A stretch of 64,000 bases of DNA. It comes from Candidatus Hermodarchaeota archaeon (GTDB taxonomy: Archaea; Asgardarchaeota; Lokiarchaeia; Sigyniarchaeales; SOKP01). Of this stretch, positions 20,209 through 39,475 are shown piece after piece (the first letter of the stretch is position 1; the number at the start of each line of letters is the position of its first letter). The stretch covers positions 54,799 through 118,798 of the forward strand of contig JBHLLP010000001.1 of assembly GCA_048885525.1 (NCBI GenBank). Direction: 5' to 3'. Made by a program: the position numbers and the translations under genes. The notes under the pieces are model-generated. The model made no database searches and was not told the DNA's origin. It saw only the letters and a program-made list of their open reading frames with translations.

Positions 20209-20230
20209 ATTTCCCTCATTTTATAATTAA

Positions 20231-21466
20231 TTATTTACCAAAAGCTTGTTTTATTAGATCTACTCGCTTCTTAGCTTTTTCTAAATTTATTTGCGCCCTA
20301 TTTGGAGAATCATTTAAGATAAAAGGATAATTAGCTAACATCTTCATATCGTTATCTTCCAACGGCTCTTTTTTACTTAATTTGTCAATAATAAGTGTAA
20401 GTTCGGTATAATTCTTGGATGAGGCATTCTCATATAACTGATTTAGCATAAATTCTGAAATGCGAGTCTCCCGAATTTCATTCACAATGCCGGTAACATC
20501 CTCAGAGTTATCAATTTTATTACTTTTTTGAATAGAAATTATTTCCTTCTCTTGATTAGATTCTGTATTTAGATCGATTTTGGAATTCTTTTCTAAGCTT
20601 AGTGGAATGGAATTTGGTATATATTCTCCAGATACAATTAAATCGATTAAAATATCCGTTATTTCATTACTAGTCTCATTTAATTCCGAGTTCAAAAAAT
20701 GCTTGAATATCCCAACTTTCAATAGTTGTTTAATATCTTTTACTTCCCAATTTTCCGTGTAATTTACTATTTCGTTAATATCAAATACAATCTTAGTATT
20801 TTTTTCTAAAAAATCTTTTAATACTGTTTGGCGCTCAATTTTATTCAGTAATGGAATTTTAATAAAAAGATCAAATGCAGTATAGATTTTATTTGAAATA
20901 AGGTTAATATCTTGGATGTTATAATTAATCCATACTAAAACCAAATTCAAATCAGTAAATTTAAAATCAAAATTTCTACTCTGTTGAACCTCGAAAAACT
21001 TTTCTAATAAGTTTTCTCCAATTTTTTGCCTAAATTCTGTTTGCTGATTAATTAATAATAATCTCTTTTCACTAGTTTTATCCAGTTCAATTTCATCATC
21101 TTCTTTTTCTATTGATTGTGCAAAAGCTTCTAAAATTGAGATGAAACTCTTTACAAATTTGGTTGGAGATTTTAAAATCTCACTTTCTTCAAATTCAATT
21201 AGATCTAAGTAATAATTCTTAGTGATAAGTTTAATGTAGTCTATTATGTCTGTTCCGGGACTGGTATTAATCAAAATTGCTCCTCTTGGTTCTAGATAAC
21301 TATTTAAAATAGTATCTTCATGATTTGTTAATATCACCTTGAGAAAGTTAATAATATCATTATATTTATCTCTATAGAATATGTCCTCTTTCTTAATTCT
21401 AATTTCTGAAGGTCTAATTATCTTAAAATATCTAGAAAACTCCGGAATATCGTTTAAATCTTTCAT
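20231..21466 (-). CDS. Hypothetical protein with degenerate AAA+-like domain (first gene of SMC operon)
   Basis: EPRGAILINTSPGTDIIDYIKLI aligns by eye to AAA+ P.GiLLyGPPGTGKT with the Lys/Thr lost. RLLLINQQTEF sits at the Walker B position without DE. Ends 22 nt upstream of the SMC start. Confidence 0.5.
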   Translation of the reverse strand: MKDLNDIPEFSRYFKIIRPSEIRIKKEDIFYRDKYNDIINFLKVILTNHEDTILNSYLEPRGAILINTSPGTDIIDYIKLITKNYYLDLIEFEESEILKSPTKFVKSFISILEAFAQSIEKEDDEIELDKTSEKRLLLINQQTEFRQKIGENLLEKFFEVQQSRNFDFKFTDLNLVLVWINYNIQDINLISNKIYTAFDLFIKIPLLNKIERQTVLKDFLEKNTKIVFDINEIVNYTENWEVKDIKQLLKVGIFKHFLNSELNETSNEITDILIDLIVSGEYIPNSIPLSLEKNSKIDLNTESNQEKEIISIQKSNKIDNSEDVTGIVNEIRETRISEFMLNQLYENASSKNYTELTLIIDKLSKKEPLEDNDMKMLANYPFILNDSPNRAQINLEKAKKRVDLIKQAFGK

Positions 21467-25958: not shown

Positions 25959-26009
25959 TTTCTCAGAAGATAATTGTAAAGCAGCTCGAATTATTACTTC
26001 CTTCTTTAC

Positions 26010-26423
26010 TTATAAAGAATTCAAGGAGGAGATAAGTTTATATTGATCTTCCGATAGTTTATCTTTTACTACTTCGAAAAGCTCTAAAAGTACATTGTCC
26101 GGAGCTCCCGCCATTACATACTTCAAAGGACCAAAAATTTTTATTTCTTTAATAAATTGAAATCCTCTGTTTTTCATATGTGTAACTAAAGCTTCTAAAT
26201 CGTCGGTTTCAATCCCCAAATGATGAATGGCTCCACGTCCTTGGTCTTTTGGTGGTTGATCATAAAAATTAATTTTCGATGATCCAATTGATATCATTAC
26301 GTTTCTAGCACCTGCCATTTTCAAATCAAATAAAACTTTAGCTCCAAACATATCTTGATAAAATTTAATACTTTTATCAAGATTGGAAGTAAAAAGATGT
26401 GCATGATGAAGTGATGTTTTCAT
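26010..26423 (-). CDS. VOC/glyoxalase-family protein
   Basis: HHAHLFTSNLDKSIKFYQDMFG ... HHLGIETDDLEA ... matches the paired beta-alpha-beta-beta-beta VOC pattern. Confidence 0.8.
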   Translation of the reverse strand: MKTSLHHAHLFTSNLDKSIKFYQDMFGAKVLFDLKMAGARNVMISIGSSKINFYDQPPKDQGRGAIHHLGIETDDLEALVTHMKNRGFQFIKEIKIFGPLKYVMAGAPDNVLLELFEVVKDKLSEDQYKLISSLNSL

Positions 26424-26488
26424 ATTTCGACCTTTTCAATTTTTTCATTAATTTTATTATTTGAATAATTGGACTATATAAAAGTTTT

Positions 26489-27523
26489 TTAAAATCTTCT
26501 TGTTTTCTTTGGATATATTTGAAAAGGAGTACGTGCTTCTTCGGAAATCCATTCTACGTTTTCATTTATATGAGAAAGTGATCTCAATAAGTCAAAAGTT
26601 AGCCAACGTGTAGCTTTTGGATGTGAGATATATTCCCATAATCCATATTCTCCTCGTTCAGACTTTATGAATTCTATGAAATCACAAATCCGCTCATCAT
26701 CCTTACTAGCATCTACTCTCCAACAAAGATTTAATATATGAGCAATATCAAATTTAGCCATAAAAGTTATCCGTCCAAAAGACTTTTCTAATCCAATAAG
26801 ACGGGCAATCATGAAACCTACATTATTTCTTAATTTTGAATCAGTTCCAAGTATTAGATCTAGAGCTCGCTTAGCTTCATCACTTTTACTACGTTTAGGG
26901 TGATAAGCAAGACAGGTGAGAACTGCTGTCGTATTCGATCGGCACCCCCATCTTGAATGAGCAAGACGGCGATATCCAGCAATTCCTCCATAATTACCTG
27001 CAGATAAACCAACAGGCCATGCCCCATCTTCTAAACGTTGTTCCATTAACCATTCAAATGCTTTCTCAGTTCTTTCATCCGTTGAATATCCACACATAAC
27101 TAATCCTAGAAGTGGAATTGCAGTTTGAATAGGCATCATCTGATATCCAATTTCTTCATCAATTAACTGTTTCTTACCAGGCATTGGCCAAGAACCATCT
27201 TTTTGTTGTTTTGAAAACATAAATTCTGCAGCTCTCTGCACAACTGGATAAGACGAATCAAAGCCAAAATAACCTAATCTCTGTAATGCTATAGATGTTA
27301 TTTGAAGGTTATCACTGGTTGTAATTCGTTCTACCCCAAAAGAATCCCATGCTCCATTTTTTTTTTGGAGTTTAAGTAAATCTCTGACGAGGGAGTCTGA
27401 TTCTCTCATTTCTGATAATTCTTGAACTTCTTTTTCATCCTTGGAATGGTGTAATAATTCAGTTAATACCAAATATCGTAAACAAGGAGATGGATCAGTT
27501 AATAAAAGTGGAATCCATGTCAC
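26489..27523 (-). CDS. Prenyltransferase/squalene-cyclase-repeat (alpha/alpha toroid) protein
   Basis: Repeated Q..(D/N)G(A/S)W motifs: QKKNGAWDSF, QQKDGSWPMPG, RLEDGAWPVG, ERGEYGLWEY. The GTG start overlaps the stop of the 1629-aa UvrA-like gene (GTGA, 4 nt). Confidence 0.7.
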   Translation of the reverse strand: MTWIPLLLTDPSPCLRYLVLTELLHHSKDEKEVQELSEMRESDSLVRDLLKLQKKNGAWDSFGVERITTSDNLQITSIALQRLGYFGFDSSYPVVQRAAEFMFSKQQKDGSWPMPGKKQLIDEEIGYQMMPIQTAIPLLGLVMCGYSTDERTEKAFEWLMEQRLEDGAWPVGLSAGNYGGIAGYRRLAHSRWGCRSNTTAVLTCLAYHPKRSKSDEAKRALDLILGTDSKLRNNVGFMIARLIGLEKSFGRITFMAKFDIAHILNLCWRVDASKDDERICDFIEFIKSERGEYGLWEYISHPKATRWLTFDLLRSLSHINENVEWISEEARTPFQIYPKKTRRF

Positions 27524-30500
27524 AATCCTCCCTCCAATACTTTTTTTAAATAAGATGCGGTGGGTGTATTTAGTTCTGCAACTTCTTCGGGAGGACCTTT
27601 AGCAATAATTTGACCTCCTTTTGGTCCCGCTCCTGGTCCTAATTCAATAATCCAATCGCATGATGCTAACACATAAGGATGATGTTCAATTACAACTACA
27701 GTATGACCTCTATTAATTAAAAGGTGTAACACATCAATTAAATTAGACACATCCTCCATATGCTGTCCAATAGTCGGTTCATCTAAAATATAGAGCGTTT
27801 TTTTGTTGGATTTCTTCGATAATTCCTTCACTATTTTAAGTCTTTGAGCTTCACCTCCAGAAAGAGTACGAGCGGGCTGATTTAATTGCAAATAACCTAA
27901 ACCTACTTTCCTAGCATAATTTAATTTTGAATGAATTGTTTCAAAATCTTTAAACAATTCATAAGCTTCATCAATTGTTAAATTATTTATGTCTGGCAAC
28001 GAAACACCTTTAAAGTATATTCGCCAAGCTTCAGCAAGATAACCAGATCCCTTACAGCTTTCGCAAGTTTCAACAATATCAGGTAAAAATTTCATATCTA
28101 ATTTGATAAAACCACGTCCATTGCAAACGGAACATCTTTTTTTTAATCTTTTTTCATTTAATCTTAAAACCTTTGCATCTTCAGTCTCAGCAAAAATTTT
28201 AAGTATAGAAGGTTCTAAACCTAAGAATTTAAGAGGACTTCCAATTTTTGCTTTAGTTTGATCTACCAATATTGTTTGAGGTAAAGAGCCTTCAATCTTT
28301 TCATATTCCCCGGGATCAATAGGTTCTCGTGATACAGAAGTTGTATGTTTTATAGGCACTAAAGCTCTTCCCAATGTGTCAATTAGTAAAGTACTTTTTC
28401 CTGAACCTGAAACTCCACACAATCCAGTTAATGAACTGTGAGGAATCTCAACTAATTCACCTTTTAGGTTATGCTCTTTTGCTCCAAAAATCTTTAACCA
28501 TTTCTTTGGTTTTCGAGTCTTTCTTGATAATTTAAATTTCCTTTTTCCACTTAACCAGTCTCCCGTAATAGTATTAGATTTTATAACTTCTTCTAAAGTT
28601 CCTTTAGCTACAATTTCGCCACCGTTGGCTCCTGCTCCTGGTCCCATATCAATAATGTAATCAGCGAATTCTAAAAATAGAGGATCATGTTCTATTATAA
28701 TAATTGTATTGCCTTTATTTCGTAATTTAATTAGAACCTTTAATAATGCCATTAGTTCAGAAGGATGTAAACCCCTTGAGGGTTCATCAAGTAGAATAGT
28801 TAAAGACGTTAATTCACTCCCTAATAGTCCAGCTAATCGTACTCTCTGAGCTTCTCCAGCTGAAAGGCTCTCAGCAATGCGATTTAAATTAATATATCCT
28901 AATCCCGTTTTGATTAGAAATTCCAAACGAATCAAAATGACCTTAAGGCTATTTTTCACAAAATCTGGTATTTTATCTTCATTCTTTCCTTTTTTAAGAA
29001 TTTCAAAGAGTTCATTCAATGGAATCTCGCACATCTGTGGGATGTTATATCCATAAAGAGAGATAGCTAGATATTGAGGACGTAATTTCATTCCATGACA
29101 TTCATTGCATACTTCCTTATCTGTATAGGTCCCTCCTACATCCCAATCTCTTAACCAGTGCTCATAAAACCCTTTGAATTGAACTACTTTATTATAGATT
29201 TGTCCTTTTTTGTTTTCAAATTCTACATCTAAAGGTTCTTTTTCTCCAAATACAAATGCATTTTTTGCTAGTTCTGACATGTCATTCCAAGTTGTTGAAA
29301 ATGGATCAAAACCATAACGAGCTGCGAGAGCCTGAACTATATAATAACCCCCGTTATATGGTTTACATAGGTATCCTTTTGGAAAAAACCCGGGAGAGTA
29401 CATAGCGCCACTGCATAATGGTTTTTCAGGGTGAATTATTAATTTGTTTGGATTAGGGACTTGAAATGATCCTACTCCATGGCACTTAAGACAAGCTGCA
29501 GAATAATTTGTAGGTATGAAATGTCTTGGTTTTGCAAAAACTATTGAAGTATTACACTTCTTACAAACCCATTTTTCTTCTCTTTCCATCCACTGATTGC
29601 ATTTAGGACAAGTTCGCTTTCCCATATAAGAAAATATATTCGACAAATGGAGTATTATGTCTGTAGCCTTTCCTATAGTATTTCTGAGATTAAAATACCA
29701 TCCATGTATAATTTTTTCAGGGATAATTGATGCTGTTATACCTAAACCTTGAATATTTTCTACTAGAGCTTCAGTGCTTTCTTTTATACCTTGTCTTTCA
29801 TACATCGATAATGTTTCTAAATACCTACGTCGTGCTTCTGTTTCAAGTGTATCTATTATCAAACTGGATTTACCTGATCCAGAGACTCCTGTGATTACAG
29901 TTAATTTCTTTTTTGGTATTTTAACATTTACATTCTTTAAATTATGAATATGAGCATTTTGAATAATAATATTTTCTGAACTTTCTCGTTTCTTCTTTAC
30001 TTTTTCAATTAATGGTAAGGTTTTTTCCTCTTCTTTCAAAGCTCGAGCTGTAAGAGATGAATGTATATCCATAAATTCTTTTAACGAACCCTGATAAATT
30101 ATTTCTCCACCAGAAGGTCCAGAACCTGGACCAAGGTCTATAATCCAATCAGCAGCTCTTATAATGTCTATATTATGTTCAACTACAACTAAAGTTGCTC
30201 CATTTTGAATCAAGTTATTCAAAATTTTTAGTAACCCTGCTAAATCCTGGGGGTGCAATCCTGTTGAAGGTTCATCAAGAATAATTAAATGGTCCTTTAG
30301 AGTCTTTCTACCAAGGTATTTTGATAATTTAATTCGTTGAGCTTCACCCCCAGATAATGTTGGTGAGGGTTGGCCTAAAGAAAGATATCCCAAACCGATA
30401 TCATTAAGAGCTTTTAACATTTGATTTGCAGAATTTAGATCTCCAATAGATAATCGCTTCTCTTTATCTAAAATCTTAACAACCTCTGAAATTGGTATAT

Positions 30501-32409
30501 CATAGAATTCTGCAATAGAATATTCTTTATCTTCAAACTTAACTTTTTCAGTAAGAATCTCTTCAGAAAATCTCTGACCATTACAATCTGGGCAATCAAT
30601 CCAATTAGAAGGTAAATATCTCATTTTAATTTCAAGGGCACCCATTCCATTGCATGTTGGACATTGACCTTCTGGAGTATTAAATGAAAAATAAGTAGCA
30701 TTAAATCTAGTAGCCTTAGCAAACACTTTTCTAATAAGATCAGCTATCTTTGTATATGTAGCAGGATTTGATCTAGGATTTTTGCCAATGGGTCCTTGAT
30801 CTACCATTATAGGTTTAACATTTGGACCTTTTATTCCATCACAACCAATAGTTTCCTTTCCTTTTAATGTGGAAAATAATACATTTTCAACTAAAGTACT
30901 TTTTCCCGAACCAGATACGCCTGTGATGACCGTTAGACGATTTAAAGGGATCTTACAACTAATATTCTTCAAATTATGCTTTTTAGCATTCTCTACTGTA
31001 AGAAATAATTGAGGTTTAGGTCTATATTTGGGAATTTTTACTTTTTCTCTTGAACTAAAAAACTTACCTGTTGGTGTCTCTGCTTTCCATAACTCAGCAG
31101 GAGTTCCAGTAAATATGATTTCACCCCCATATCTTCCAGCTCCGGGACCGATATCAATCACATTATCTGCAGATAATGCAGCTTGCCGGTCATGTTCAAT
31201 ATAAATCACTGGACCCTCAAGATTGTGAAGTACTGGTAATAATCGTGCGACATCAGCGGGATGTTGACCAATCGTCGGTTCATCAAGTATATGTGTTATA
31301 TCCTCTAATTCACTTAATAATGCAATAGCTAGTCGAACTCTTTGAGACTCCCCTCTTGATAAAGTTGGAGAAACTCGATCTAACGTTAGATAGTCTAGAC
31401 CTACAGTCTTTAATGCAAGCAGACGTTTTTTGATTTCTTGTAGTAATCTATTTGTAATTGGTAATTCCTCTTTAGAGAAGTAAGTGATTAGTTCTCCCAC
31501 TGATTTTGTTAATATTTGGGAAAATAACATACCTTCCCAAGAAACATTAGATGCTAGTGGATGATATCCTGTTTTATTACATTCTTTACACCCTCTTCCC
31601 TTACAATGAGGACAATTTTTCTTAAAGTGTGTAGGTTCAAGCTCACCAAACCAATTGCCACATTCCACACATATAGGAACTCGAGAAATGATAGATTTTA
31701 CTGATTTTCCTTCAACAATTAATGAATTTGCCCCTAATGAGGAGATAGTTTTAACTATATTTCGAATCTCATTAATATTGCTGCTTGCGGTCACTTGACC
31801 AATTTGAATCTGAATATCATGAGATTCCTTTGGATTTAATTCTGTCCTTACAGGTTTTCCGTCAACTAAAACTGCTTCAAAACCAAATTCCTTCTTTAGA
31901 AGTTCAATTAAGGTTTGATGACTCCCTTTTATTTTTCTTACTAAAAGAGCAGAAATAATTAATGATTCTCTTTTTCTCAATCCATCTACTTTAGCGATAA
32001 TCTCGTCTTCTTTTAAAACAGACAAATTACTACCACATACATGGCATTTTCTATCACCAAATCTGGCATATAAAATCTTTAAAAGCGGAATAAGACCTAT
32101 TGCTGATGCTAAGATGGAATTTGGATTTCGATTAAGAACATTCTGTCCAAGAGCTATTGTAGGTCCTAGTCCAGTTATAGACCTTACTTTCGCAGGACTT
32201 AATTTTATTTCATCTTTACTAACTGAAAATGCTTCTAAAAACCTGCGACGAGCTTCCTTATACAATATGTCGAAAATAAGTGAAGTTTTTCCCGAACCAG
32301 AAACACCAGTTATCACCGTTAGCCCGTCTTTTATATCAACATCAACATTCTTTAAATTATGTTCCTCTGCTCCACGAATTTTTATCTCCATATTACTTCT
32401 AACATCCAT
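27520..32409 (-). CDS. Tandem-duplicated UvrA-like ABC ATPase (two complete UvrA units, four nucleotide-binding domains)
   Basis: 1629 aa. Four Walker A motifs (three GVSGSGKST/S plus one GLCGVSGSGKST), four signature motifs (LSRGESQR, LSGGEAQR, LSAGEAQR, LSGGEAQR) and multiple CxxC zinc modules. Each half starts with the UvrA-typical I..A.EHNLKN. Confidence 0.9.
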   Translation of the reverse strand: MDVRSNMEIKIRGAEEHNLKNVDVDIKDGLTVITGVSGSGKTSLIFDILYKEARRRFLEAFSVSKDEIKLSPAKVRSITGLGPTIALGQNVLNRNPNSILASAIGLIPLLKILYARFGDRKCHVCGSNLSVLKEDEIIAKVDGLRKRESLIISALLVRKIKGSHQTLIELLKKEFGFEAVLVDGKPVRTELNPKESHDIQIQIGQVTASSNINEIRNIVKTISSLGANSLIVEGKSVKSIISRVPICVECGNWFGELEPTHFKKNCPHCKGRGCKECNKTGYHPLASNVSWEGMLFSQILTKSVGELITYFSKEELPITNRLLQEIKKRLLALKTVGLDYLTLDRVSPTLSRGESQRVRLAIALLSELEDITHILDEPTIGQHPADVARLLPVLHNLEGPVIYIEHDRQAALSADNVIDIGPGAGRYGGEIIFTGTPAELWKAETPTGKFFSSREKVKIPKYRPKPQLFLTVENAKKHNLKNISCKIPLNRLTVITGVSGSGKSTLVENVLFSTLKGKETIGCDGIKGPNVKPIMVDQGPIGKNPRSNPATYTKIADLIRKVFAKATRFNATYFSFNTPEGQCPTCNGMGALEIKMRYLPSNWIDCPDCNGQRFSEEILTEKVKFEDKEYSIAEFYDIPISEVVKILDKEKRLSIGDLNSANQMLKALNDIGLGYLSLGQPSPTLSGGEAQRIKLSKYLGRKTLKDHLIILDEPSTGLHPQDLAGLLKILNNLIQNGATLVVVEHNIDIIRAADWIIDLGPGSGPSGGEIIYQGSLKEFMDIHSSLTARALKEEEKTLPLIEKVKKKRESSENIIIQNAHIHNLKNVNVKIPKKKLTVITGVSGSGKSSLIIDTLETEARRRYLETLSMYERQGIKESTEALVENIQGLGITASIIPEKIIHGWYFNLRNTIGKATDIILHLSNIFSYMGKRTCPKCNQWMEREEKWVCKKCNTSIVFAKPRHFIPTNYSAACLKCHGVGSFQVPNPNKLIIHPEKPLCSGAMYSPGFFPKGYLCKPYNGGYYIVQALAARYGFDPFSTTWNDMSELAKNAFVFGEKEPLDVEFENKKGQIYNKVVQFKGFYEHWLRDWDVGGTYTDKEVCNECHGMKLRPQYLAISLYGYNIPQMCEIPLNELFEILKKGKNEDKIPDFVKNSLKVILIRLEFLIKTGLGYINLNRIAESLSAGEAQRVRLAGLLGSELTSLTILLDEPSRGLHPSELMALLKVLIKLRNKGNTIIIIEHDPLFLEFADYIIDMGPGAGANGGEIVAKGTLEEVIKSNTITGDWLSGKRKFKLSRKTRKPKKWLKIFGAKEHNLKGELVEIPHSSLTGLCGVSGSGKSTLLIDTLGRALVPIKHTTSVSREPIDPGEYEKIEGSLPQTILVDQTKAKIGSPLKFLGLEPSILKIFAETEDAKVLRLNEKRLKKRCSVCNGRGFIKLDMKFLPDIVETCESCKGSGYLAEAWRIYFKGVSLPDINNLTIDEAYELFKDFETIHSKLNYARKVGLGYLQLNQPARTLSGGEAQRLKIVKELSKKSNKKTLYILDEPTIGQHMEDVSNLIDVLHLLINRGHTVVVIEHHPYVLASCDWIIELGPGAGPKGGQIIAKGPPEEVAELNTPTASYLKKVLEGGL

Positions 32410-34923
32410 TTAATTAAGATACGGACCAGTCTTGGATTTTTTATTCATTTTTATATCTGTTGAAGTACCTTCTGCGATAATCTTTCCTCCTTTAGGCCCT
32501 CCCTCAGGTCCTAATTCTATGATGTAATCGCAATATGAAAGAATCTCGGGATCATGTTCTATAATTATAACAGAATTACCTTCCCTAACTAATTTTTCAA
32601 GTAATTCCATTAGTTTTATTGCATCATAAAATGATAATCCAACTGTTGGCTCATCCAAAATATAAAGGGATTTCCCTTTTCTAACTTTTCCCAGTTCCTT
32701 TGCTAATTTTATACGTTGAGCTTCTCCCCCACTTAGAGTAGGAGCGGGTTGTCCAAGCTCAATATATCCCATTCCAATATCATCTAAAATATTAAGTACT
32801 TTTGAGATGCTTTCTTGTGTTTTAAATAATTCATTAGCTTCGTTAACAGTTATTCCAAGCACATCTGCTATGGATTTCCTTTTATACTTGATTTCTAATA
32901 TCTCTGGTTTATATCTTGATCCTTTACACTCTTTACAGGGGATTGTAAAACTTGTAAGGAATGAGACTTGAAGATCTTGAACTCCTTGCCCCTTACATGC
33001 TGGGCAACGTCCTCTGTCAGAATTATAGGAAAAGTGTCCTGTAGTAAATTTACGTTTCTTAGCTTCAGCAGTTTTTGAAAATAAGTTGCGTATCTTGTCC
33101 CAAATACCGATAAATGAGCAAGGAGTGGATGTTCGTACTCTCGATATAGGTTTTTGATTAACTACTATGACTTCATCAATATTTTCCCATCCCTCTACCT
33201 GTCCAAAGTATTCTAATAATCCTTCACCATTTTCTTCATTTTCTTCCTCTTCCCCATTAATACTTTTTTGTTTTCCTTTTCTTTTAACTCTTCTCTTAAA
33301 GTATGGTTTTAACAAAGGTACTAGTGTATCTAAAATAAGCGAGCTCTTACCAGAACCTGAAACACCCGCAACTCCTACCATTACGCCCAATGGTATTTTT
33401 ACTGTAACATTCTTCAGGTTATTTGTATTGGCATTACTTAATGTTATATATTTCGTAGTTCTATCAATATGCCTTAATGATTCAATTTCCTTTTTAGGCA
33501 ATTCTATTTGCCCTGCGAGGAATTGTCCTGTATATGATTCCTTAATCTGTTTAATGCCATCTAAAGCTCCTTGATAAACTATTTCACCACCATGAATACC
33601 AGCCCCGGGACCGATATCGATGATTTCATCAGCAATCTCAATAAACCGCTTATCATGCTCAACTACTATAATAGTATTTCCCAAATCCTTTAATTGCTGC
33701 AGTAGAGTAACTAATGAATCTTTTTCAAGCTCGTGCAAACTCATACTGGGTTCATCTAAAATATATATTAATGAGTCTAGACCTCCATCTAAATGAGTCA
33801 TAAGTGATAATCTTTGTAATTCTCCCCCACTAAGTGTTGGTAAAGAGCGGTGTAAGTGAAGATAGGAAAGTCCAACATTAACCATCCGCTTTAAACCTAG
33901 TTTTACATTATCAAGTATCGCTCTTCCTTGAGGTCTTTTTATATCTTCATCACTTAAATTATCGAAATGTTCTTGTAATTCATCAATAGTCATCATAGCT
34001 AACTCACCAATATGTTTTTCAGAGATTTTAATTCCTCGTGCTTCTTCATTAATTCTATATCCTTGACAATCTTCACATTTCTTCTTGGACATGTATTCCT
34101 TAGTAATCTTGTTCTTTCTATAATCACTCTTACCTTCAGTCATTGCACGTTCCATGTGGGGTATGATACCTTCAAATACACGTTCCAATTCTCCCTGAAA
34201 AGTCTTTGATTCCCACCAAAACTTTAACTTTTTACCCTTACTACCATATAGATATAAGTCTTTTATTTCCTGAGGTAAGTCCTTGTAGGGAGTATTCATA
34301 TTAAAATCAAAGAAATTAGGGAGTTGTTCTACGAATTTGATTTGATCGGCAAAACAACCAGAACCCGCTTTTGTAATCTGCATTAAAGTTCTACTATAAT
34401 CTTGAACGATCATTTCTTCAGTGAAATGCATCTCATATCCGCGACCCTTACAAGTTAAGCACATCCCTGAAGGTTCATTAAAGGAAAAATGCTTAATTTG
34501 CTTGCGATCCACAACCATCCCACATATGTCGCATTCGAGGGTTGATTGGTTCACTGGTTCTTTGCAAATAGGACATAAAAGGATACCTTGAGTAGCATAT
34601 AGCATCCTAATTAAACTATAAATCCCTGTTTTTGTACCAACTGTAGACCGGGGATTAAATACGCGTGTAGTCCTCTGTTCTACTGCCACGGTAGGACTTA
34701 ACCCTTCGATCATATCGAAAGGTTTTTCATCTTCAAACTTAGGTGGGAACCCAATAGATTGAAGATATCGATTCATTCCTTCATCAAATATAATATCAAA
34801 TGCCAAGCTAGACTTTCCCGATCCAGAAACACCTGTTATTAGGATCATCTTCCCTTTAGGAATATCGACATCTATATCTTTTAAATTATGAATTCTTGCT
34901 CCTCTTACCTTTATTATATCCAT
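32410..34923 (-). CDS. UvrA-like ABC ATPase lacking the UvrB-binding domain (class II / UvrA2-like)
   Basis: 837 aa. IKVRGARIHNLKDIDVDIPKGKMILITGVSGSGKSSLAFD, two signature motifs LSGGELQR / LSGGEAQR, and a C-terminal CPACKGQG...CKECKGSRY zinc finger. Only about 35 aa separate CPIC from FSFNEPSGMCLTCKGRG, where canonical UvrA carries the roughly 130-aa UvrB-binding domain. Confidence 0.9.
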   Translation of the reverse strand: MDIIKVRGARIHNLKDIDVDIPKGKMILITGVSGSGKSSLAFDIIFDEGMNRYLQSIGFPPKFEDEKPFDMIEGLSPTVAVEQRTTRVFNPRSTVGTKTGIYSLIRMLYATQGILLCPICKEPVNQSTLECDICGMVVDRKQIKHFSFNEPSGMCLTCKGRGYEMHFTEEMIVQDYSRTLMQITKAGSGCFADQIKFVEQLPNFFDFNMNTPYKDLPQEIKDLYLYGSKGKKLKFWWESKTFQGELERVFEGIIPHMERAMTEGKSDYRKNKITKEYMSKKKCEDCQGYRINEEARGIKISEKHIGELAMMTIDELQEHFDNLSDEDIKRPQGRAILDNVKLGLKRMVNVGLSYLHLHRSLPTLSGGELQRLSLMTHLDGGLDSLIYILDEPSMSLHELEKDSLVTLLQQLKDLGNTIIVVEHDKRFIEIADEIIDIGPGAGIHGGEIVYQGALDGIKQIKESYTGQFLAGQIELPKKEIESLRHIDRTTKYITLSNANTNNLKNVTVKIPLGVMVGVAGVSGSGKSSLILDTLVPLLKPYFKRRVKRKGKQKSINGEEEENEENGEGLLEYFGQVEGWENIDEVIVVNQKPISRVRTSTPCSFIGIWDKIRNLFSKTAEAKKRKFTTGHFSYNSDRGRCPACKGQGVQDLQVSFLTSFTIPCKECKGSRYKPEILEIKYKRKSIADVLGITVNEANELFKTQESISKVLNILDDIGMGYIELGQPAPTLSGGEAQRIKLAKELGKVRKGKSLYILDEPTVGLSFYDAIKLMELLEKLVREGNSVIIIEHDPEILSYCDYIIELGPEGGPKGGKIIAEGTSTDIKMNKKSKTGPYLN

Positions 34924-34938
34924 TTTTGACCCCCATTT

Positions 34939-35610
34939 TCATTCTATTTTTTGTAATATGTAAGTTGTACATTCAAAACCCGTGGGATTTTTTTTTACCA
35001 TATCGATTTCTGCTAAATGACGTTTAATTTCTTTAATATCGTCAATATTTTCATATTTATTACGCAACTCATTTACTTTCTTTTCTAATGGAGCGTAGTA
35101 TTCCTTCCACCAGCATTTTTCAGCCCATGGAATTTGCTTTAAAACATTAAAACCAAATTTTGGAAAATGTTTAAGCTTCTTATCTGCCCAATTATTAGCT
35201 TCACCTGAAATCAAATAACCATTTAACTTTAGTATTCTATTACATTCAGTTATAGCCTTCTTGAAATCAAGAAGATGTATAACCCCTTCTTCCCAAATGA
35301 TATCAAACGTCTCGTCTTCAAATTTTGTATCATATATTGAACGATTAAATATTTCTATTCTATCTGAAAGTCCTTCTTGCTTAATTTTATGATTAAATTT
35401 ATTTAATGAATCCTGATCAATATCTATACCAGTTATTTTTCCATTACTTAACTTAACCAACTCCAAGGAGGGCATTCCAGTACCACATCCAATGTCAAGG
35501 ATGCGTGGTTTATCTATCCTTGGGATGCTTTCAAATGCCATTCTAGTGTATTGTAGAAACACAGCTCGAAGTCCCTCAGCATTTAGTTCTTTTAGTATAT
35601 TTTCAACCAT
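34939..35610 (-). CDS. Class I SAM-dependent methyltransferase
   Basis: Motif I ILDIGCGTGMPSLEL and post-I acidic residue GIDID. 223 aa. Confidence 0.8.
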   Translation of the reverse strand: MVENILKELNAEGLRAVFLQYTRMAFESIPRIDKPRILDIGCGTGMPSLELVKLSNGKITGIDIDQDSLNKFNHKIKQEGLSDRIEIFNRSIYDTKFEDETFDIIWEEGVIHLLDFKKAITECNRILKLNGYLISGEANNWADKKLKHFPKFGFNVLKQIPWAEKCWWKEYYAPLEKKVNELRNKYENIDDIKEIKRHLAEIDMVKKNPTGFECTTYILQKIE

Positions 35611-35627
35611 TTTAAATCAAACCTCCC

Positions 35628-36797
35628 TTAAATTGCTTTTTTTACGGTTTCCCATGCTTTAGTTTCTAATTCCAACCATTCTTGAATACCCCAGTCAATC
35701 TCTGGAATTCGTTCTCTCCAAGCATCCGCCTCTTTTTTTGCCCCATCTAGCACTTTCTCACTCTCATTATTTAATTGTTTTAATTGCTTTTGATAATCTT
35801 TTTCTCCAGCTTCTGTAATTTTGTTACTTTTAAGGAATATTTCTCTAAGTTTACCCAAATTTGGAAGGTCATCTGGTAAAATGAGAGTTTCTAAGTCATG
35901 AATTTTTTTAACGATATCCCCAAATATATCTGAAGCTCTCAGAAGTCCATCATTATTCAACAATTCGCCTGCTTCCTTCAAGAAATCTCTATATAAAATT
36001 CTAAACATAGCCCCCCCAGTCCCGCCGGTTTCCATGTAAATGAACACACTTACTAAACCAAAAATTAAATTTTCATCAGTGAACTCAGTTCCCCAAGTAG
36101 GAAGCATTATTCTCCACTTTTGGAAGCCTGTTAATCCCATATTTTTAATGGGAGGATTATACATGAAATTTACATTTGCTTTTATAGCTGCTGGTATAAG
36201 CTCTTTCAAATCCTTAATCTTTTTTGGTAGGACTAACTCAACTAGTTTATTCTTTGCTGGAAACGGTGCATGCTTACTTCCTCTTGCTGCCTTTAGTTCT
36301 TCATAGGTCATAAGATGAGGATTTGCATATCTATCTGAGATATAAGCCATATTTTTCTCCTCATCTATTCCGTATGTTACAAATGTATGTGCTCCAAAAT
36401 GACCTGATTTTTCATTTGGAATGGGTGTTCCTTCTGCAAAAAAGAAAGGTAGATAAGCGAAGTCAACAAATGTAATTGCAGGTTGCTCTTTCTCTAATAG
36501 AGCCACTAAATTATTATGGGCTACATTTACAGATGCCGTTTCTGTTATTTTAACACTCCCTCCTAAACGATTTAGGACCCGTTCAAATACTTCAGTTTTT
36601 TTCACAGCTAATCCTAAAACCATTGGAAAAGGCATGCGTTTCATGTAAAAATAGAAGAATCCTAATCCAGAGCTTAAACCAACAATCATTGGTTCAGAAA
36701 GTTCAATATCATAGTATGCGAGCACTTTTCTAAGACTAGACATCTGGCAGTTTGCGCCTGCCATGTGTTTAAAATCATCGATTACTATTCTAACCAT
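35628..36797 (-). CDS. Papain-like (BtrH-N / peptidase C39-like) domain protein with DUF4872-like C-terminal domain
   Basis: Candidate nucleophile in HMAGANCQMSSLRKVL and candidate His in GHFGAHTFVTYGIDEE. The C-terminal block METGGTGGAMFRILYRDFLKE is shared with ORF 37250..38677. Confidence 0.6.
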   Translation of the reverse strand: MVRIVIDDFKHMAGANCQMSSLRKVLAYYDIELSEPMIVGLSSGLGFFYFYMKRMPFPMVLGLAVKKTEVFERVLNRLGGSVKITETASVNVAHNNLVALLEKEQPAITFVDFAYLPFFFAEGTPIPNEKSGHFGAHTFVTYGIDEEKNMAYISDRYANPHLMTYEELKAARGSKHAPFPAKNKLVELVLPKKIKDLKELIPAAIKANVNFMYNPPIKNMGLTGFQKWRIMLPTWGTEFTDENLIFGLVSVFIYMETGGTGGAMFRILYRDFLKEAGELLNNDGLLRASDIFGDIVKKIHDLETLILPDDLPNLGKLREIFLKSNKITEAGEKDYQKQLKQLNNESEKVLDGAKKEADAWRERIPEIDWGIQEWLELETKAWETVKKAI

Positions 36798-36809
36798 TTT
36801 ATTTTCCTC

Positions 36810-37238
36810 CTATTTTATATTTGGATTTATTTTCAATCCACATTCATAACATTTTGTATCATGTATACAAATCTCATCACCACATTCGGGGCAAGTATAT
36901 AGCTTTTTTTTTTCTTTGAGCCAAGACTCAACTCCAATTTCTTTAAGTCTCTTCAAATTTTTAATTGGACTAACATTGTACCTACTCACATAAGTATCAT
37001 CAATTTTCTTCAAATTATCACATGGGAATTTTTCACATTCATAACAGTATTCCAATTCCTTTTTCCTAATTGGGGGACAATCTCTTTTAATGAAAGAGCA
37101 ATTTTTATTACGGATTCTACAACCTAAACATCCATATTTAAGACCTTTTTCTTCCAAAAGATTTTTCTTCCTGATTAAATATGACCTACAGGCACCACAA
37201 TAAATTCCACAAGGTGCAGCTAAATTATTATCTATCAT
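36810..37238 (-). CDS. Cys-rich DUF3795-like protein
   Basis: APCGIYCGACRSY, GCLGCRIRNKNC, CYECEKFPC, plus C-terminal CPECGDEICIHDTKCYECG zinc-ribbon-like pairs. Confidence 0.55.
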   Translation of the reverse strand: MIDNNLAAPCGIYCGACRSYLIRKKNLLEEKGLKYGCLGCRIRNKNCSFIKRDCPPIRKKELEYCYECEKFPCDNLKKIDDTYVSRYNVSPIKNLKRLKEIGVESWLKEKKKLYTCPECGDEICIHDTKCYECGLKINPNIK

Positions 37239-37249
37239 TTGATTCTCAC

Positions 37250-38677
37250 CTAGTTTTTAATTTTTGATAATCTTGTGAATAATTCCTCTTCCTTAGTAAG
37301 AATATTAATCACAGTATTATGCAGTTCACCAAAATCCACATGATTAATACAATCATCTTTATATTCATCACCCGCATTCTTTAATGTTTCTGCGATCAGA
37401 GTCCAATTTTGAGCAGAATCACTAATTATGGGGATGCATTCTTCAATAATACCGAATTCATAAGAATTCCATGCCCTAGGACCTTCTTTAAGCTCAGGAT
37501 GGCTTAGTAATTCTTCTAAAAACTCTTTATAGAGCTTTCTGAAAGAACCCCCTCCAGTACCCCAAGTTTCAATGTATCCATGCATAAGCTCAAACATCAT
37601 GCGTCCTAAGGATATTTCATTTCCTTTTGAATTTGTAATAGTTTTATTTAATTTATCTCCCCATGTGAGTATAGAATTTGCAAACTGCTTCAAACCTTGA
37701 ATACCATTAGAATTCATTGAGGGTCGTAGCATGTTATTCACAACTTTTTGAATCGCTAACTTAACGCCTGCTGCTAAAGGTGGATGTTTACCATCAGCAC
37801 GACGTGTCATTGAGAATTGAGTATTCCCTGGATGCATAAACTTCGGTCCATAAGTCGAACTCCTCGCTGTCTTAAGGATATCAATTGGAACTTCTTGAAA
37901 ACCCTCAAATTCAGTGTCACCTATGTATGCAATTCCTATCTCCTCGTTATAACCCCCTAATACTACTGCATGCCCTCCAAAATGAGCCTCTTCCATCTCG
38001 TCATCAAAACCTTCATAAGGCATATAAGCGATATCTACTCTTAAAATAAGTGGAGTATTTTGTTTTAACATCCTCTTAGATTCCTCCCAAGCTTTATCTG
38101 TATTCGTGAATGATTGCTTTCTTAGTGTAATACCTAACAATCGACATGCAAGACTATTTGGTTCAATTGTACCTTGTTTTCCTCCTAAGAAGAATGGGAT
38201 ATCTGATTTGGGCATAAAGGAAACTTGTCCAGTAGTGTCAAAAAATCCAAATCCCAACGTTGCATCTAAGCCAAAAGCCATAGGTTCGGACATCGGAAAT
38301 CCATAAAACTCGAATAAATCCCTCAATGACGAGGATTCGCAATGAAAACCAATTCGATGTATTAAATTATTTATAATAATACCTTTATCTTGATTTATTC
38401 CTCTTTCCCTATCATGGGTGTTCCCATATATAATGCTTTCAGCATTATTATACCATTCATCTCTTTTCTCCTTTAGAAATTTCCTTTTTAATGGATTTGA
38501 ACCATAAATCTTATGACAATTAGTGCATAAGGGAGTTGCATTATTTTGATCATCTGGACCTCCTTCATTTTGAGGTATTATATGATGAATTTGGATAGTT
38601 TCTAATCTATGGCAAATAGAGCATCTATGAAAGGCTTTATTTCGAACTTCATTTTTTATTTTTTCACTAAATGGCAT
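37250..38677 (-). CDS. HNH nuclease domain fused to papain-like (BtrH-N/C39-like) + DUF4872-like domains
   Basis: N-terminal RCSICHRLETIQIHHIIPQNEGGPDDQNNATPLCTNCHKIY (CxxC...HH...N...CxxCH HNH zinc-finger pattern). Followed by GFHCESSSLRDLFEFYGF, AHFGGHAVVLGGYNEE and IETWGTGGGSFRKLYKEFLEE. Confidence 0.65.
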   Translation of the reverse strand: MPFSEKIKNEVRNKAFHRCSICHRLETIQIHHIIPQNEGGPDDQNNATPLCTNCHKIYGSNPLKRKFLKEKRDEWYNNAESIIYGNTHDRERGINQDKGIIINNLIHRIGFHCESSSLRDLFEFYGFPMSEPMAFGLDATLGFGFFDTTGQVSFMPKSDIPFFLGGKQGTIEPNSLACRLLGITLRKQSFTNTDKAWEESKRMLKQNTPLILRVDIAYMPYEGFDDEMEEAHFGGHAVVLGGYNEEIGIAYIGDTEFEGFQEVPIDILKTARSSTYGPKFMHPGNTQFSMTRRADGKHPPLAAGVKLAIQKVVNNMLRPSMNSNGIQGLKQFANSILTWGDKLNKTITNSKGNEISLGRMMFELMHGYIETWGTGGGSFRKLYKEFLEELLSHPELKEGPRAWNSYEFGIIEECIPIISDSAQNWTLIAETLKNAGDEYKDDCINHVDFGELHNTVINILTKEEELFTRLSKIKN

Positions 38678-38739: not shown

Positions 38740-39324
38740 TTATTTTTCTTTATAATCGTTGGGACCTATTTGTCTCCCGAATTTTTTAAGTTCTTCTAAA
38801 ACCCATTCTATAAATTTGATATCAGTTTCTAAGATCATTATTGGATGTTTAAACAAACCTGTTACATTAATTGGTAATTGGCTATTAACTTCTAGCATTT
38901 CCTCTAATTCTTTTTTATGTTTTTTGATTTTATTAAGTGAATAGTTGAAAACCTTCATCTGTTCCTCAAATGTTAAAACTGGAAACATAGAAAATGCCAC
39001 ATAAAAATCTTCATCATTTTTACCATAAAAATCACGTAAAACTTGCTCGATTTTGTTTTTCAATACCTCTGAGCCATAAGGGGTGATATTATATACCTTA
39101 ATCATCCGGTTATCAAGTTCTTCAATCCAAGACTGAACTAACCCATCTTTTTCAAGTTTTTTAAGAACTCCATATATAGAAGATGTCCCGATGCTTGTCC
39201 AGCCTCGCATCCCTCTATTTTCAATCTTTTCATCAATAATTTTTCCATGACATGGTTCCTCCGAGATCAAACCTAAAACAACAAAAGCTACATGACTTAA
39301 GTCATAGTTATTGTTTTCTGACAT
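38740..39324 (-). CDS. PadR-family transcriptional regulator
   Basis: VVLGLISEEPCHGKIIDEKI...TSSIYGVLKKLEKDGLVQSW is the PadR winged-helix signature. A C-terminal helical extension is present. Confidence 0.8.
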   Translation of the reverse strand: MSENNNYDLSHVAFVVLGLISEEPCHGKIIDEKIENRGMRGWTSIGTSSIYGVLKKLEKDGLVQSWIEELDNRMIKVYNITPYGSEVLKNKIEQVLRDFYGKNDEDFYVAFSMFPVLTFEEQMKVFNYSLNKIKKHKKELEEMLEVNSQLPINVTGLFKHPIMILETDIKFIEWVLEELKKFGRQIGPNDYKEK

Positions 39325-39363
39325 TCTATACGATATAATTTTTTTAATTATGTATTCAGATCG

Positions 39364-39377
39364 TTCTTATATAAGAA
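39364..39377. promoter_or_regulatory. 14-bp perfect palindrome upstream of padR-like gene (candidate operator and/or TATA element)
   Basis: TTCTTATATAAGAA is self-complementary and begins 40 nt upstream of the PadR ATG (39324). Confidence 0.3.
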
Positions 39378-39475
39378 TGATATGATAATAGAATATTTAA
39401 ATCTTATGCAAAAAAATGAAAAATGACAATAAAAAAAAATATTGAAACTAAATCTAAATTTTAATTTACAAATTC

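Follow-up and report, generated by a model that had tools for sequence, protein, structure and literature searches.

UvrA paralogues that lack the UvrB-binding domain (UBD) are known, but to our knowledge a function has been established for only one of them, the drug-resistance protein Ecm16. Even in uvrA, uvrB, uvrC and uvrD mutants this protein makes cells resistant to echinomycin, and its action requires both its ATPase activity and its insertion domain (PMC9328131; PMC10192343). The class II proteins of known structure, D. radiodurans UvrA2 and Ecm16, are devoid of zinc module 1 (Zn1; PMC10192343), and the absence of this module is a trait of class IIa (PMC10192343; PMC9328131). A further subclass, class IIb (Marszalkowska et al., 2013), is named by way of citation in PMC9328131. 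In P. gingivalis, an operon with a uvrA paralogue protects against H2O2, and a uvrB mutant is unaffected (PMC3747172).

The locus considered here is that of an Asgard archaeon and lies in a window of 64,000 nucleotides (the whole stretch of DNA that was analysed). An 837-aa open reading frame at 32410-34923 had been marked in the first-pass annotation; this is confirmed, on the minus strand, and the product (A2) carries the following features:

[quoted passage not shown]
34522..34575, minus strand: Zn1 knuckle of A2, C117-P-I-C120, 10-residue linker, C131-D-I-C134, aligning with the two CxxC pairs of Zn1 in T. maritima and E. coli
34066..34461, minus strand: zinc module 2 (C155/C158 and C283/C286) around the 124-aa insertion (DNA-binding) domain, located by PF17755 and the CxxC positions
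33211..33303, minus strand: family-specific loop, Lys/Arg-rich and then Glu-rich, residues ~541-571 in NBD-II, predicted to be disordered and falling in a gap of the class I alignment
32926..33006, minus strand: zinc module 3 (C640/C643 and C663/C666), the C-terminal zinc finger of NBD-II

A2 belongs to the UvrA superfamily, as its tandem ABC motifs and its fold make plain. The motif set is complete: Walker A (residues 31 and 520), signature (LSGGE, 364 and 730), Walker B (LDEP, 389 and 756) and H-loop (EH, 422 and 789) each occur twice, and these ATPase motifs are invariant across 28 homologues. The protein scores 850.5 bits against TIGR00630 (cutoff 729.8) and 881 against the stricter NF001503 (cutoff 1147). 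The AF2 model (mean pLDDT 81.6) has a UvrA fold; Foldseek matches it to B. stearothermophilus UvrA (2r6f, E=2.7e-79, TM 0.80), and the top 39 matches are UvrA proteins without exception. In the charged loop of NBD-II the pLDDT falls below 50 over residues 547-571, and the loop is also part of the family consensus. Homologues of A2 show 74-86% identity over more than 100 Asgard protein clusters, the gene occurs in about 68 species-level genome loci, and it is the best-conserved gene of its operon. Protein clusters P0001 and P0291 are identical to the A2 of the window and to the neighbouring double UvrA (D, described below), respectively.

The UvrB-binding domain had been reported as missing from A2, and indeed PF17760 gives no match to the protein. 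Residues 2-131 pair with residues 24-156 of C. thermocellum UvrA, and from about residue 131 the alignment continues with residues from about 270 to 956, so that residues ~157-269 of the C. thermocellum protein are skipped. Ten residues lie between C120 and C131, compared with 129 in E. coli UvrA; at the site of this linker, inside Zn1, class I UvrA bears its ~129-aa UvrB-binding domain. The reading of Zn1 itself has to be revised. Its halves had been placed about 35 aa apart, with CDIC counted as an extra cysteine pair between them. CDIC (C131/C134) aligns with the second CxxC of Zn1 (T. maritima 'MCPVCG', E. coli C253/C256), and therefore it is CPIC and CDIC that form the two halves, with 10 residues between them. 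FSFNEPSGMCLTC does not belong to Zn1 but supplies the first half of zinc module 2; its partner half is C283/C286, and the module begins at FSFN...CLTC. The insertion-domain-like region is retained, as had been stated: FEGIIPHMERAM...CEDCQG occupies residues 250-288, and PF17755 (insertion/DNA-binding domain) matches residues 196-274 (E=5.6e-17). The zinc cysteines are invariant in 28 homologues (12 of 12), and the Zn1 knuckle is modelled with a pLDDT of 85-92. The UvrB-binding domain would appear to have been excised precisely between the Zn1 halves, leaving a 10-residue zinc knuckle behind. [quoted passage not shown] Retention of the knuckle might mean that some contact surface is preserved in A2.

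The assignment of A2 to class II (UvrA2) stands in so far as the UvrB-binding domain is absent and the insertion domain kept, but it does not extend to the characterised class IIa proteins. All four Zn1 cysteines (C117, C120, C131 and C134) are invariant and aligned with class I Zn1, and A2 is closer to class I than to class IIa in both sequence and structure. Whole-protein bit scores are 675-679 for class I (C. thermocellum and B. stearothermophilus UvrA), compared with 504 for 2vf7 and 424 for 7sh1; identity in Foldseek is 39-42% to class I, and 34% and 30% to DrUvrA2 and Ecm16, respectively. The whole-library search of representatives ranked summed multi-domain scores, with double UvrAs filling the list and single-unit relatives not shown directly. 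In the nearest-unit comparison, for which proteins were split into UvrA units and reduced to a collinear core of 597 columns, A2 is 47% identical to E. coli UvrA, its nearest neighbours are class I-type units, and Zn1-less units are not among the 30 nearest. Judged by its sequence, A2 is a class II protein in architecture only. It looks like a separate lineage outside the DrrC/Ecm16/UvrA2 group, and class IIb may cover such Zn1-retaining proteins without a UvrB-binding domain. The A2 family would then represent a separate route to the UBD-less architecture, with the Zn1 knuckle kept and a class I-like core.

The operon reads PadR, BtrH-like, DUF3795 and methyltransferase, all upstream of A2 and on the same strand, with spacers of 11-65 nt in the window. 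Two complete Asgard chromosomes, CP070831.1 and CP070695.1, have the operon as well. The members of the cluster, with the number of loci in which each is found, are:

39347..39394, unstranded: imperfect palindrome (24+24 nt, 75% complementarity) spanning the TATA-like region that precedes padR
38740..39324, minus strand: 194-aa PadR-family regulator, first gene of the cluster (50 of 54 loci)
37250..38677, minus strand: 475-aa BtrH_N + DUF4872 protein with an N-terminal HNH nuclease motif (BtrH part in 52 of 55 loci)
36810..37238, minus strand: 142-aa Cys-rich DUF3795 protein, CGIYCGAC and three further Cys clusters (49 of 63 loci)
35628..36797, minus strand: 389-aa BtrH_N + DUF4872 protein, second copy (14 of 60 loci)
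34939..35610, minus strand: 223-aa class I SAM methyltransferase (UbiE/ArsM-like), 15 nt upstream of A2 (49 of 67 loci)
26010..26423, minus strand: 137-aa glyoxalase/bleomycin-resistance (VOC) family protein, last gene of the cluster (14 of 42 loci)

The palindrome is a candidate operator and a lead only; in such AT-rich DNA it may have arisen by chance. Adjacency of a BtrH-like gene and A2 also occurs in one Bathyarchaeota-labelled and one Heimdallarchaeota locus, where the identity of A2 is 57-58%. The window and some 1.1 Mb of sequence flanking the orthologues contain no uvrB, uvrC or class I uvrA, and an efflux pump is no constant member of the A2 operon. PDB sequence searches with the BtrH-like (BtrH_N/DUF4872) and DUF3795 proteins returned no solved homologue.

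By analogy, the most likely role of A2 would be that of a UvrB-independent sensor of DNA lesions or ligands in a genotoxic-stress operon. That this UvrA-type ABC ATPase without a UvrB-binding domain serves an inducible operon of the genotoxin/xenobiotic-stress kind seems moderately probable. A2 would be a functional, DNA-scanning ABC ATPase of the UvrA type, forming a head-to-head dimer by analogy with UvrA, UvrA2 and Ecm16. The PadR-headed operon would constitute an inducible genotoxin or xenobiotic-stress module, in which the ATPase A2 binds DNA and protects or flags it, and then hands off to the operon enzymes, which would act on the offending compound or adduct. For this purpose the BtrH-like product is taken as a papain-fold acyltransferase/hydrolase and the methyltransferase as one of the small-molecule type. 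Because BtrH_N/DUF4872 and DUF3795 have no solved homologue, the detoxification reading rests on family names. The very high conservation of A2 is at least as compatible with a housekeeping role on DNA as with a response to xenobiotics, and perhaps more so. Furthermore, since UvrABC is attributed to Asgards in a review (PMC12993045), an indirect link between A2 and UvrB, for example via D, is possible.

UvrA-like genes serve as markers of DNA-intercalator clusters (PMC10413001), and the operon could be read as such a cluster: its enzymes (the BtrH-like acyltransferases, the methyltransferase, a prenyltransferase/cyclase-like protein and the Cys-rich protein) would make a DNA-binding metabolite, and A2 would shield the producer as DrrC and Ecm16 do. 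BtrH-type proteins are biosynthetic acyltransferases, in butirosin (NF053550) and, as DarH, in aryl-polyene/dialkylresorcinol clusters (PMC3949708), and a bleomycin-resistance-family protein belongs to the cluster. However, its 13 kb contain no NRPS, no PKS, no terpene synthase with catalytic motifs and no recognisable precursor peptide. The cluster is near-universal and highly conserved over about 68 species, whereas specialised-metabolite clusters are patchy, and the PadR repressor at its head is typical of stress/detoxification operons. Given also that A2 is no closer to the DrrC/Ecm16 group than to class I, self-resistance of a producer is very unlikely.

An anti-virus defence system related to MADS, in which mad3 and mad8 resemble UvrA half-proteins and mad2 a methyltransferase, comes into view through PADLOC, which matches A2 to mad3 (E=1.7e-78) and mad8 (E=4.9e-31) and the methyltransferase to mad2 (E=2.5e-18). 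In the window, a BtrH-like gene bears a fused HNH nuclease motif, which would be in keeping with such a system. Yet the E. coli UvrA control scores 342 bits on mad3 (E=1.6e-102), compared with 263 bits for A2. Because a genuine UvrA scores higher on the same models, the matches amount to generic UvrA/ABC similarity, and A2 as a specific mad3/mad8 component was rejected after this control. The mad2 match is confined to the SAM-binding core, the other MADS components are absent, and the HNH part of the 475-aa protein is unique to this genome among the loci compared. Moreover, the operon is conserved and syntenic, whereas defence islands are variable. A defence function of this kind is extremely improbable, and the inducible stress operon is retained as the preferred reading.

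Behind A2, in the same transcription direction and with almost no spacer, lies a double UvrA, as the first-pass annotation had noted. It is accompanied by a partner gene:

27520..32409, minus strand: double UvrA, D; longest open reading frame 1629 aa, conserved start at 32391 giving 1623 aa
31672..32034, minus strand: UvrB-binding-domain-like segment of the D N-unit, residues 126-246, between C122/C125 and C247/C250
26489..27523, minus strand: 344-aa protein of squalene-hopene-cyclase-like type (alpha/alpha toroid repeats), whose gene overlaps the stop of D by 4 nt

The stop codon of A2 (TAA, 32412-32410) does abut an ATG at 32409, but D is unlikely to begin there. The start that is conserved across the orthologous loci compared is MEIKIRG, which corresponds to M7 of the window's reading frame and lies 18 nt past the A2 stop. 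At the position of the window's ATG-GAT-GTT, several D orthologues carry in-frame stops, and the called orthologues have 1623 aa. Coupled translation, which had been deduced from the abutting ATG, loses its basis, that codon being unconserved among orthologues. The suggested complex of three UvrA units (A2 and the two units of D) is unlikely in an obligate form because in Chloroflexi D and its toroid partner are found with no A2 or other 837-aa-type gene; D is also missing next to A2 in 29 of the 54 loci with enough downstream sequence. The squalene-cyclase-like gene always accompanies D in the loci compared. D is part of a separate two-gene cassette with this protein, placed behind A2 in about half of the lineages.

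Of these two domains, the N-unit of D has only the UvrB-binding domain, its insertion domain having been lost; in the C-unit the UvrB-binding domain is gone, whereas Zn1 and the insertion domain are still there. The N-unit segment matches PF17760 (E=1.1e-7, 32 bits, cutoff 23), is modelled by AF2 with an alpha/beta pattern at a pLDDT of 87-93, and has 3uwx_A (UvrA from the UvrA-UvrB complex) as its best Foldseek match. Against PRK00635, D scores 889 bits, below the cutoff of 3054. The best 150 cluster representatives are nearly all double UvrAs of about 1550-1960 aa, among which units without an insertion domain or a UvrB-binding domain are common. The particular combination of D, an N-unit with the UvrB-binding domain but no insertion domain and a C-unit with Zn1 and the insertion domain but no UvrB-binding domain, is found in that sample in its own family only (P0244, 53% identity; P0270, 43%).

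The sets of these domains in A2 (insertion domain only), the D N-unit (UvrB-binding domain only) and the D C-unit (insertion domain only) are complementary, and A2 and D might jointly be the UvrA of the organism, a split sensor for nucleotide-excision repair. The single UvrB-binding domain of D would recruit UvrB, the insertion domains of A2 and the D C-unit would sense the lesion, and the domain losses would reflect complementary subfunctionalisation. The tight adjacency of both genes on one strand is consistent with this, as are the confident UBD-like fold in the N-unit, whose best match is the UvrA of a UvrA-UvrB complex, and a rough neighbour-joining tree, without support values, that sets A2 beside the D C-units. 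Class I shows asymmetric UvrA2-UvrB1 complexes and an interplay of insertion domain and UvrB-binding domain (PMC11985968), and UvrABC is reported in Asgards (PMC12993045). Against it, D is not beside A2 in more than half of the loci (29 of 54), and Chloroflexi have D and the toroid partner without A2. The identity between A2 and the D C-unit is only 33%, by distance A2 is in fact nearer to E. coli UvrA, and no uvrB or uvrC is linked in the window or the 1.1 Mb of orthologous flanks. A division of labour between A2 and D is thus considered unlikely, and A2 as a UvrB-independent sensor is preferred.

A more far-reaching scenario, distinctly unlikely as it stands, is that A2 with the BtrH-like, DUF3795 and methyltransferase proteins forms a DNA-adduct or DNA-ligand pathway of Asgard and neighbouring sediment archaea that does without UvrB and UvrC, and that the 'UvrB-binding' domain of D docks the co-translated toroid protein and not UvrB. 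If this were true, D and the toroid protein would be an autonomous, horizontally mobile two-gene cassette for DNA surveillance common to Chloroflexi, Bathyarchaeota and Asgard archaea. The pair of D and the squalene-cyclase-like protein is in any case an unstudied two-gene cassette spread over the bacterial and archaeal domains. The A2 family is highly conserved, with fixed operon partners, in the archaea closest to eukaryotes, and it offers a defined system for asking what UvrA does when it is unable to call UvrB. Present annotations call these genes either 'excinuclease ABC subunit UvrA', which overstates a role in UvrABC repair, or 'hypothetical protein', which is uninformative.

Among the known systems, class I UvrA (E. 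coli, B. stearothermophilus, C. thermocellum, T. maritima) is the group most similar to A2 and shares with it the tandem NBD-I/NBD-II core, the three zinc modules, the insertion domain and the C-terminal zinc finger. Unlike class I UvrA, A2 has the 10-residue linker in place of the ~129-aa UvrB-binding domain between the Zn1 halves and a charged loop of ~21 aa inserted in NBD-II, and it is encoded in an archaeal PadR operon rather than near ssb, uvrB or uvrC. Like the class IIa proteins (D. radiodurans UvrA2, 2VF7; Ecm16, 7SH1; DrrC), A2 is devoid of the UvrB-binding domain and keeps the insertion domain, Zn2 and Zn3. It is also of similar size (about 800-840 aa), and the alignment with DrUvrA2 runs end to end (4-836 vs. 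16-837). In contrast to class IIa, A2 is archaeal, lies outside any biosynthetic cluster and keeps all four Zn1 cysteines. The tandem-fused UvrAs (PRK00635 type, ~1800 aa) resemble D in having two complete UvrA units in one polypeptide; D differs from other double UvrAs in its own domain combination and in the squalene-cyclase-like gene that is always next to it. The P. gingivalis operon PG1036-PG1037-pcrA, co-transcribed and from an anaerobe host, presents, like the A2 operon, a second UvrA paralogue with accessory genes. Its partners are a zinc-finger protein and a PcrA helicase, whereas those of A2 are the PadR, BtrH-like, DUF3795 and methyltransferase proteins. Ecm16, which has been shown to work without UvrB, UvrC and UvrD, is the working model used for A2, although A2 is closer to class I.

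A2, the 837-aa UvrA paralogue encoded on the minus strand from 34923 down to 32410, is a class I-like UvrA from which the UvrB-binding domain (UBD) alone has been lost, conserved across Asgard archaea. The first-pass annotation had reported this loss; the observation is real and its interpretation right in part, two corrections being needed, in the zinc modules and at the start of the following gene. By motif scan A2 is a complete UvrA, with two copies each of Walker A, the LSGGE signature, Walker B and the H-loop, and it scores 850 bits against TIGR00630 (cutoff 730). Pfam detects the insertion (DNA-binding) domain PF17755 (E=5.6e-17), bearing out its retention, and gives no match in A2 to the UvrB-interaction domain PF17760. 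In alignment, A2 residues 2-131 correspond to 24-156 of the class I UvrA of C. thermocellum and the sequence from ~131 to residues ~270-956, leaving ~113 residues of the latter unmatched; A2 4-836 aligns with D. radiodurans UvrA2 16-837 in one unbroken stretch. The AlphaFold2 model (mean pLDDT 81.6; residues 110-140 at 85-92) has at the UBD site a short hairpin alone, with no additional domain, so that the structure-prediction check proposed for the linker reveals no UBD fold, and its top Foldseek matches are exclusively UvrA structures (TM 0.80 to 2r6f). The ATPase and DNA-binding apparatus (insertion domain, zinc module Zn3) is intact. Relative to class I UvrA, NBD-II carries an inserted loop of ~21-30 residues (A2 ~541-571, window 33211-33303, minus strand), rich first in Lys/Arg and then in Glu; it is predicted to be disordered and occurs throughout the Asgard family. 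A 135-aa ORF antisense to A2 (33167-33574, plus strand) is most likely spurious.

The zinc ligands locate the excision. In E. coli UvrA, Zn1 is formed by C120/H123 and C253/C256 (halves 129 residues apart), Zn2 by C277/C280 and C406/C409 (125 residues) and Zn3 by C740/C743 and C763/C766. The A2 counterparts are C117/C120 and C131/C134, just 10 residues apart, C155/C158 and C283/C286 (124 residues), and C640/C643 and C663/C666. In a focused search with A2 residues 93-182, 'CPICKEPVNQSTLE' aligns with the first of the two CxxC pairs in T. maritima Zn1 and 'LECDICG...FSFNEPSGMCLTC' with T. maritima 'LMCPVCG...FSFNSPYGACPNC'. Given this alignment and the E. coli ligand spacing, the CDIC pair, previously taken as extra, is the second half of Zn1, and FSFN...CLTC forms the opening half of Zn2. 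The UBD is thus cleanly excised from within Zn1. All 12 zinc cysteines are invariant across 28 homologues, one of them just 47% identical.

By architecture (UBD lost, insertion domain retained) A2 belongs to class II, as proposed, but it is more similar to class I UvrA than to the class IIa proteins D. radiodurans UvrA2 and Ecm16. These structurally characterized class II proteins also lack zinc module 1 (PMC10192343; PMC9328131), whereas A2 retains it. Scores against A2 are 679 bits (Foldseek identity 42%) for C. thermocellum UvrA and 675 bits (39%) for B. stearothermophilus UvrA, both class I, vs. 504 bits (34%) for D. radiodurans UvrA2 and 424 bits (30%) for Ecm16; identity to E. coli UvrA over 597 collinear core columns is 47%. 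Among the 30 nearest neighbors outside its own family on this core there are no typical Zn1-less units, and P0259 is the sole UBD-less one. This 794-aa protein (47% identity) is the nearest non-Asgard single-unit relative among the matches listed. Its gene lies directly 3' of another single-unit UvrA-like gene (849 aa) on a bacterial contig (L084, 7436-12385), the two being separate paralogues with no fusion. UBD-less units that keep Zn1 are also present in ~1650-aa double UvrAs, so the A2 architecture is uncommon rather than unique. A rough neighbor-joining tree without support values places A2 beside the C-units of the family of D, the double UvrA encoded directly 3' of A2, and apart from most Zn1-less units; this grouping may serve as a lead.

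A protein identical to A2 is on record from a MAG labeled Candidatus Hodarchaeota. The next 119 clusters among the matches listed (74-86% identity, about 830-840 aa) come from MAGs labeled Promethearchaeota (formerly Lokiarchaeota), Thor-, Hermod-, Hod-, Odin- and Heimdallarchaeota, and clustering at 50% leaves essentially one representative. A family-specific motif scan, with one genome per species, yields 68 Asgard-type loci. The public label is plain 'excinuclease ABC subunit UvrA', which does not reflect the domain loss. A literature search found no paper dealing with the family or its operon, which is undescribed so far. The operon genes in the window are separated by 0-65 nt, save one 4-nt overlap:

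Gene cluster around A2, in cluster order
39324-38740, minus strand: padR, first gene
38677-37250, minus strand: HNH-BtrH_N-DUF4872 gene
37238-36810, minus strand: DUF3795 gene
36797-35628, minus strand: BtrH_N-DUF4872 gene, second copy
35610-34939, minus strand: SAM methyltransferase gene
34923-32410, minus strand: A2
32409-27520, minus strand: double UvrA (D)
27523-26489, minus strand: squalene-cyclase-like gene
26423-26010, minus strand: glyoxalase/bleomycin-resistance family gene

Window proteins were compared with the 68 loci by tblastn, counting loci with sufficient flank. On the same strand upstream of A2 lie PadR (50/54 loci), a BtrH-like gene (52/55), DUF3795 (49/63) and the methyltransferase (49/67); a second BtrH-like copy occurs upstream in 14 of 60 and a VOC protein downstream in 14 of 42. 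A2 is the best-conserved gene (63-85% identity, vs. 45-64% for PadR), and the BtrH-like-A2 pair is also retained on the Bathyarchaeota-labeled contig and the Heimdallarchaeota chromosome that carry the two most distant loci. Purifying selection on A2 is strong and the PadR-headed operon is fixed. That this gene set is a biosynthetic cluster with self-resistance is improbable.

The first BtrH_N/DUF4872 protein carries a fused HNH nuclease motif (CSICH...HHIIP...N...CTNCH), which occupies the first ~100 aa of its 475-aa ORF (38380-38677, minus strand). By tblastn this motif is absent from the other loci of the 68, where orthologues match the BtrH part alone, and it may represent the insertion of an HNH element or a fusion specific to this lineage. 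The DUF3795 protein (36810-37238, minus strand), whose gene adjoins the methyltransferase gene or A2 on the upstream side in its 49 loci, has CGIYCGAC (Cx3Cx2C) near the N-terminus and three more Cys clusters, suggesting that it binds either Fe-S clusters or several zinc ions. A 24+24 nt imperfect palindrome (39347-39394, 75% complementary) lies over a TATA-like sequence some 25-70 nt 5' of padR; it is a possible PadR operator, but the DNA there is rich in AT and the palindrome may have arisen by chance. G+C is 0.33-0.35 over the operon (26000-38000) vs. 0.25-0.31 in most flanking windows, which may mean that conserved proteins constrain the composition or that the region is of foreign origin. 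Elsewhere, at 16738-21466 (minus strand), a gene for a 1156-aa SMC-like protein (SMC_N and hinge) precedes a 411-aa ORF with no Pfam match.

The TAA stop of A2 (32412-32410) directly abuts an ATG that opens the 1629-aa D ORF (32409 down to 27520, minus strand), an arrangement earlier taken to imply coupled translation. The abutment is present in the window, but comparison of A2/D junctions across orthologous loci carrying D shows that this ATG is not conserved: no start codon occurs at that position elsewhere, and in-frame stops follow it in several loci. Closer orthologues share the start ATG-GAA-ATT-AAA (MEIKIRG), about 13-25 nt past the A2 stop; in more divergent ones the spacing, from alignment, is about 50-85 nt. 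Given this start and called orthologues of 1623 aa, the true spacer in the window is most likely 18 nt. The two genes are very likely co-transcribed; strict stop-start coupling is not supported.

In the N-unit of D, the Zn1 halves (C122/C125 and C247/C250) are 121 residues apart and PF17760 is matched at E=1.1e-7, exceeding the cutoff. Its AF2 model (mean pLDDT 86.1) has an alpha/beta domain at residues 120-240 (87-93), with 3uwx, UvrA of a UvrA-UvrB complex, as top Foldseek match. The Zn2 halves (C266/C269 and C274/C277) are just 4 residues apart, so the insertion domain has been lost. The C-unit, with Zn1 C934/C937 and C949/C952 (11 residues) and Zn2 C973/C976 and C1101/C1104 (124 residues), has the layout of A2 at only 33% identity. 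The D polypeptide therefore carries a single UBD and a single insertion domain, whereas a class I UvrA dimer has two of each. Public labels of the family (P0291, P0295, P0297 and others) are 'hypothetical protein', 'AAA family ATPase' and 'ATP-binding cassette domain-containing protein', and miss these losses.

Of the 54 loci in which at least 1.5 kb is available past A2, 25 have D within 200 nt of its 3' end. In Asgard loci the squalene-cyclase-like gene, which overlaps D by 4 nt and encodes a squalene-hopene-cyclase-like toroid protein (alpha/alpha) of ~345 aa, accompanies D in 21 of 22 cases and never occurs there without it. D-family proteins (55-57% identity) are also found in Chloroflexi and Bathyarchaeota, and two Chloroflexi contigs show the pair again, the squalene-cyclase-like gene (346-347 aa) coming next after D and overlapping it by 4 nt, with no A2, PadR or BtrH-like genes nearby. 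Since the pair occurs there without the other operon genes, D and the toroid gene appear to form an autonomous two-gene cassette (window 26489-32409, minus strand; L085 9001-14927; L086 1867-7790), and its place behind A2 is a secondary juxtaposition. The juxtaposition is possibly meaningful, and a split sensor in which A2 works together with D is conceivable, if rather unlikely. This cassette, common to Asgard and Chloroflexi and thus cross-domain, is the less expected outcome. In nine loci without D (L002 6630-7646 and eight more) and in none with it, a distant prenyltransferase-like homologue (22-27% identity) occurs upstream, with the BtrH-like gene on one side and DUF3795 on the other; a toroid protein of one kind or another may therefore be present almost throughout.

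Asgards took up bacterial UvrABC according to a recent review (PMC12993045). By tblastn, neither the window nor 1.1 Mb of flanking Asgard sequence yields a uvrB or uvrC homologue, and all sufficiently large window ORFs are assigned to other families. A role in anti-virus defense, to which PADLOC matches of A2 to MADS models might point, is very improbable: E. coli UvrA outscores A2 on the same models, so the matches are generic and the MADS identity was dismissed. We lean towards a UBD-less A2 acting without direct UvrB recruitment in an inducible response to genotoxic compounds or adducts, a reading drawn from the PadR repressor, the small-molecule-type methyltransferase, the papain-fold BtrH-like enzymes and, in some genomes, the VOC/bleomycin-resistance protein. 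By analogy with class I UvrA, UvrA2 structures and Ecm16 experiments, A2 would dimerize and clamp duplex DNA, its insertion domains would tell distorted or ligand-bound DNA apart, and turnover would be ATP-driven with no direct recruitment of UvrB. The uvrA-paralogue operon of P. gingivalis provides a precedent for such a uvrB-independent role in stress.
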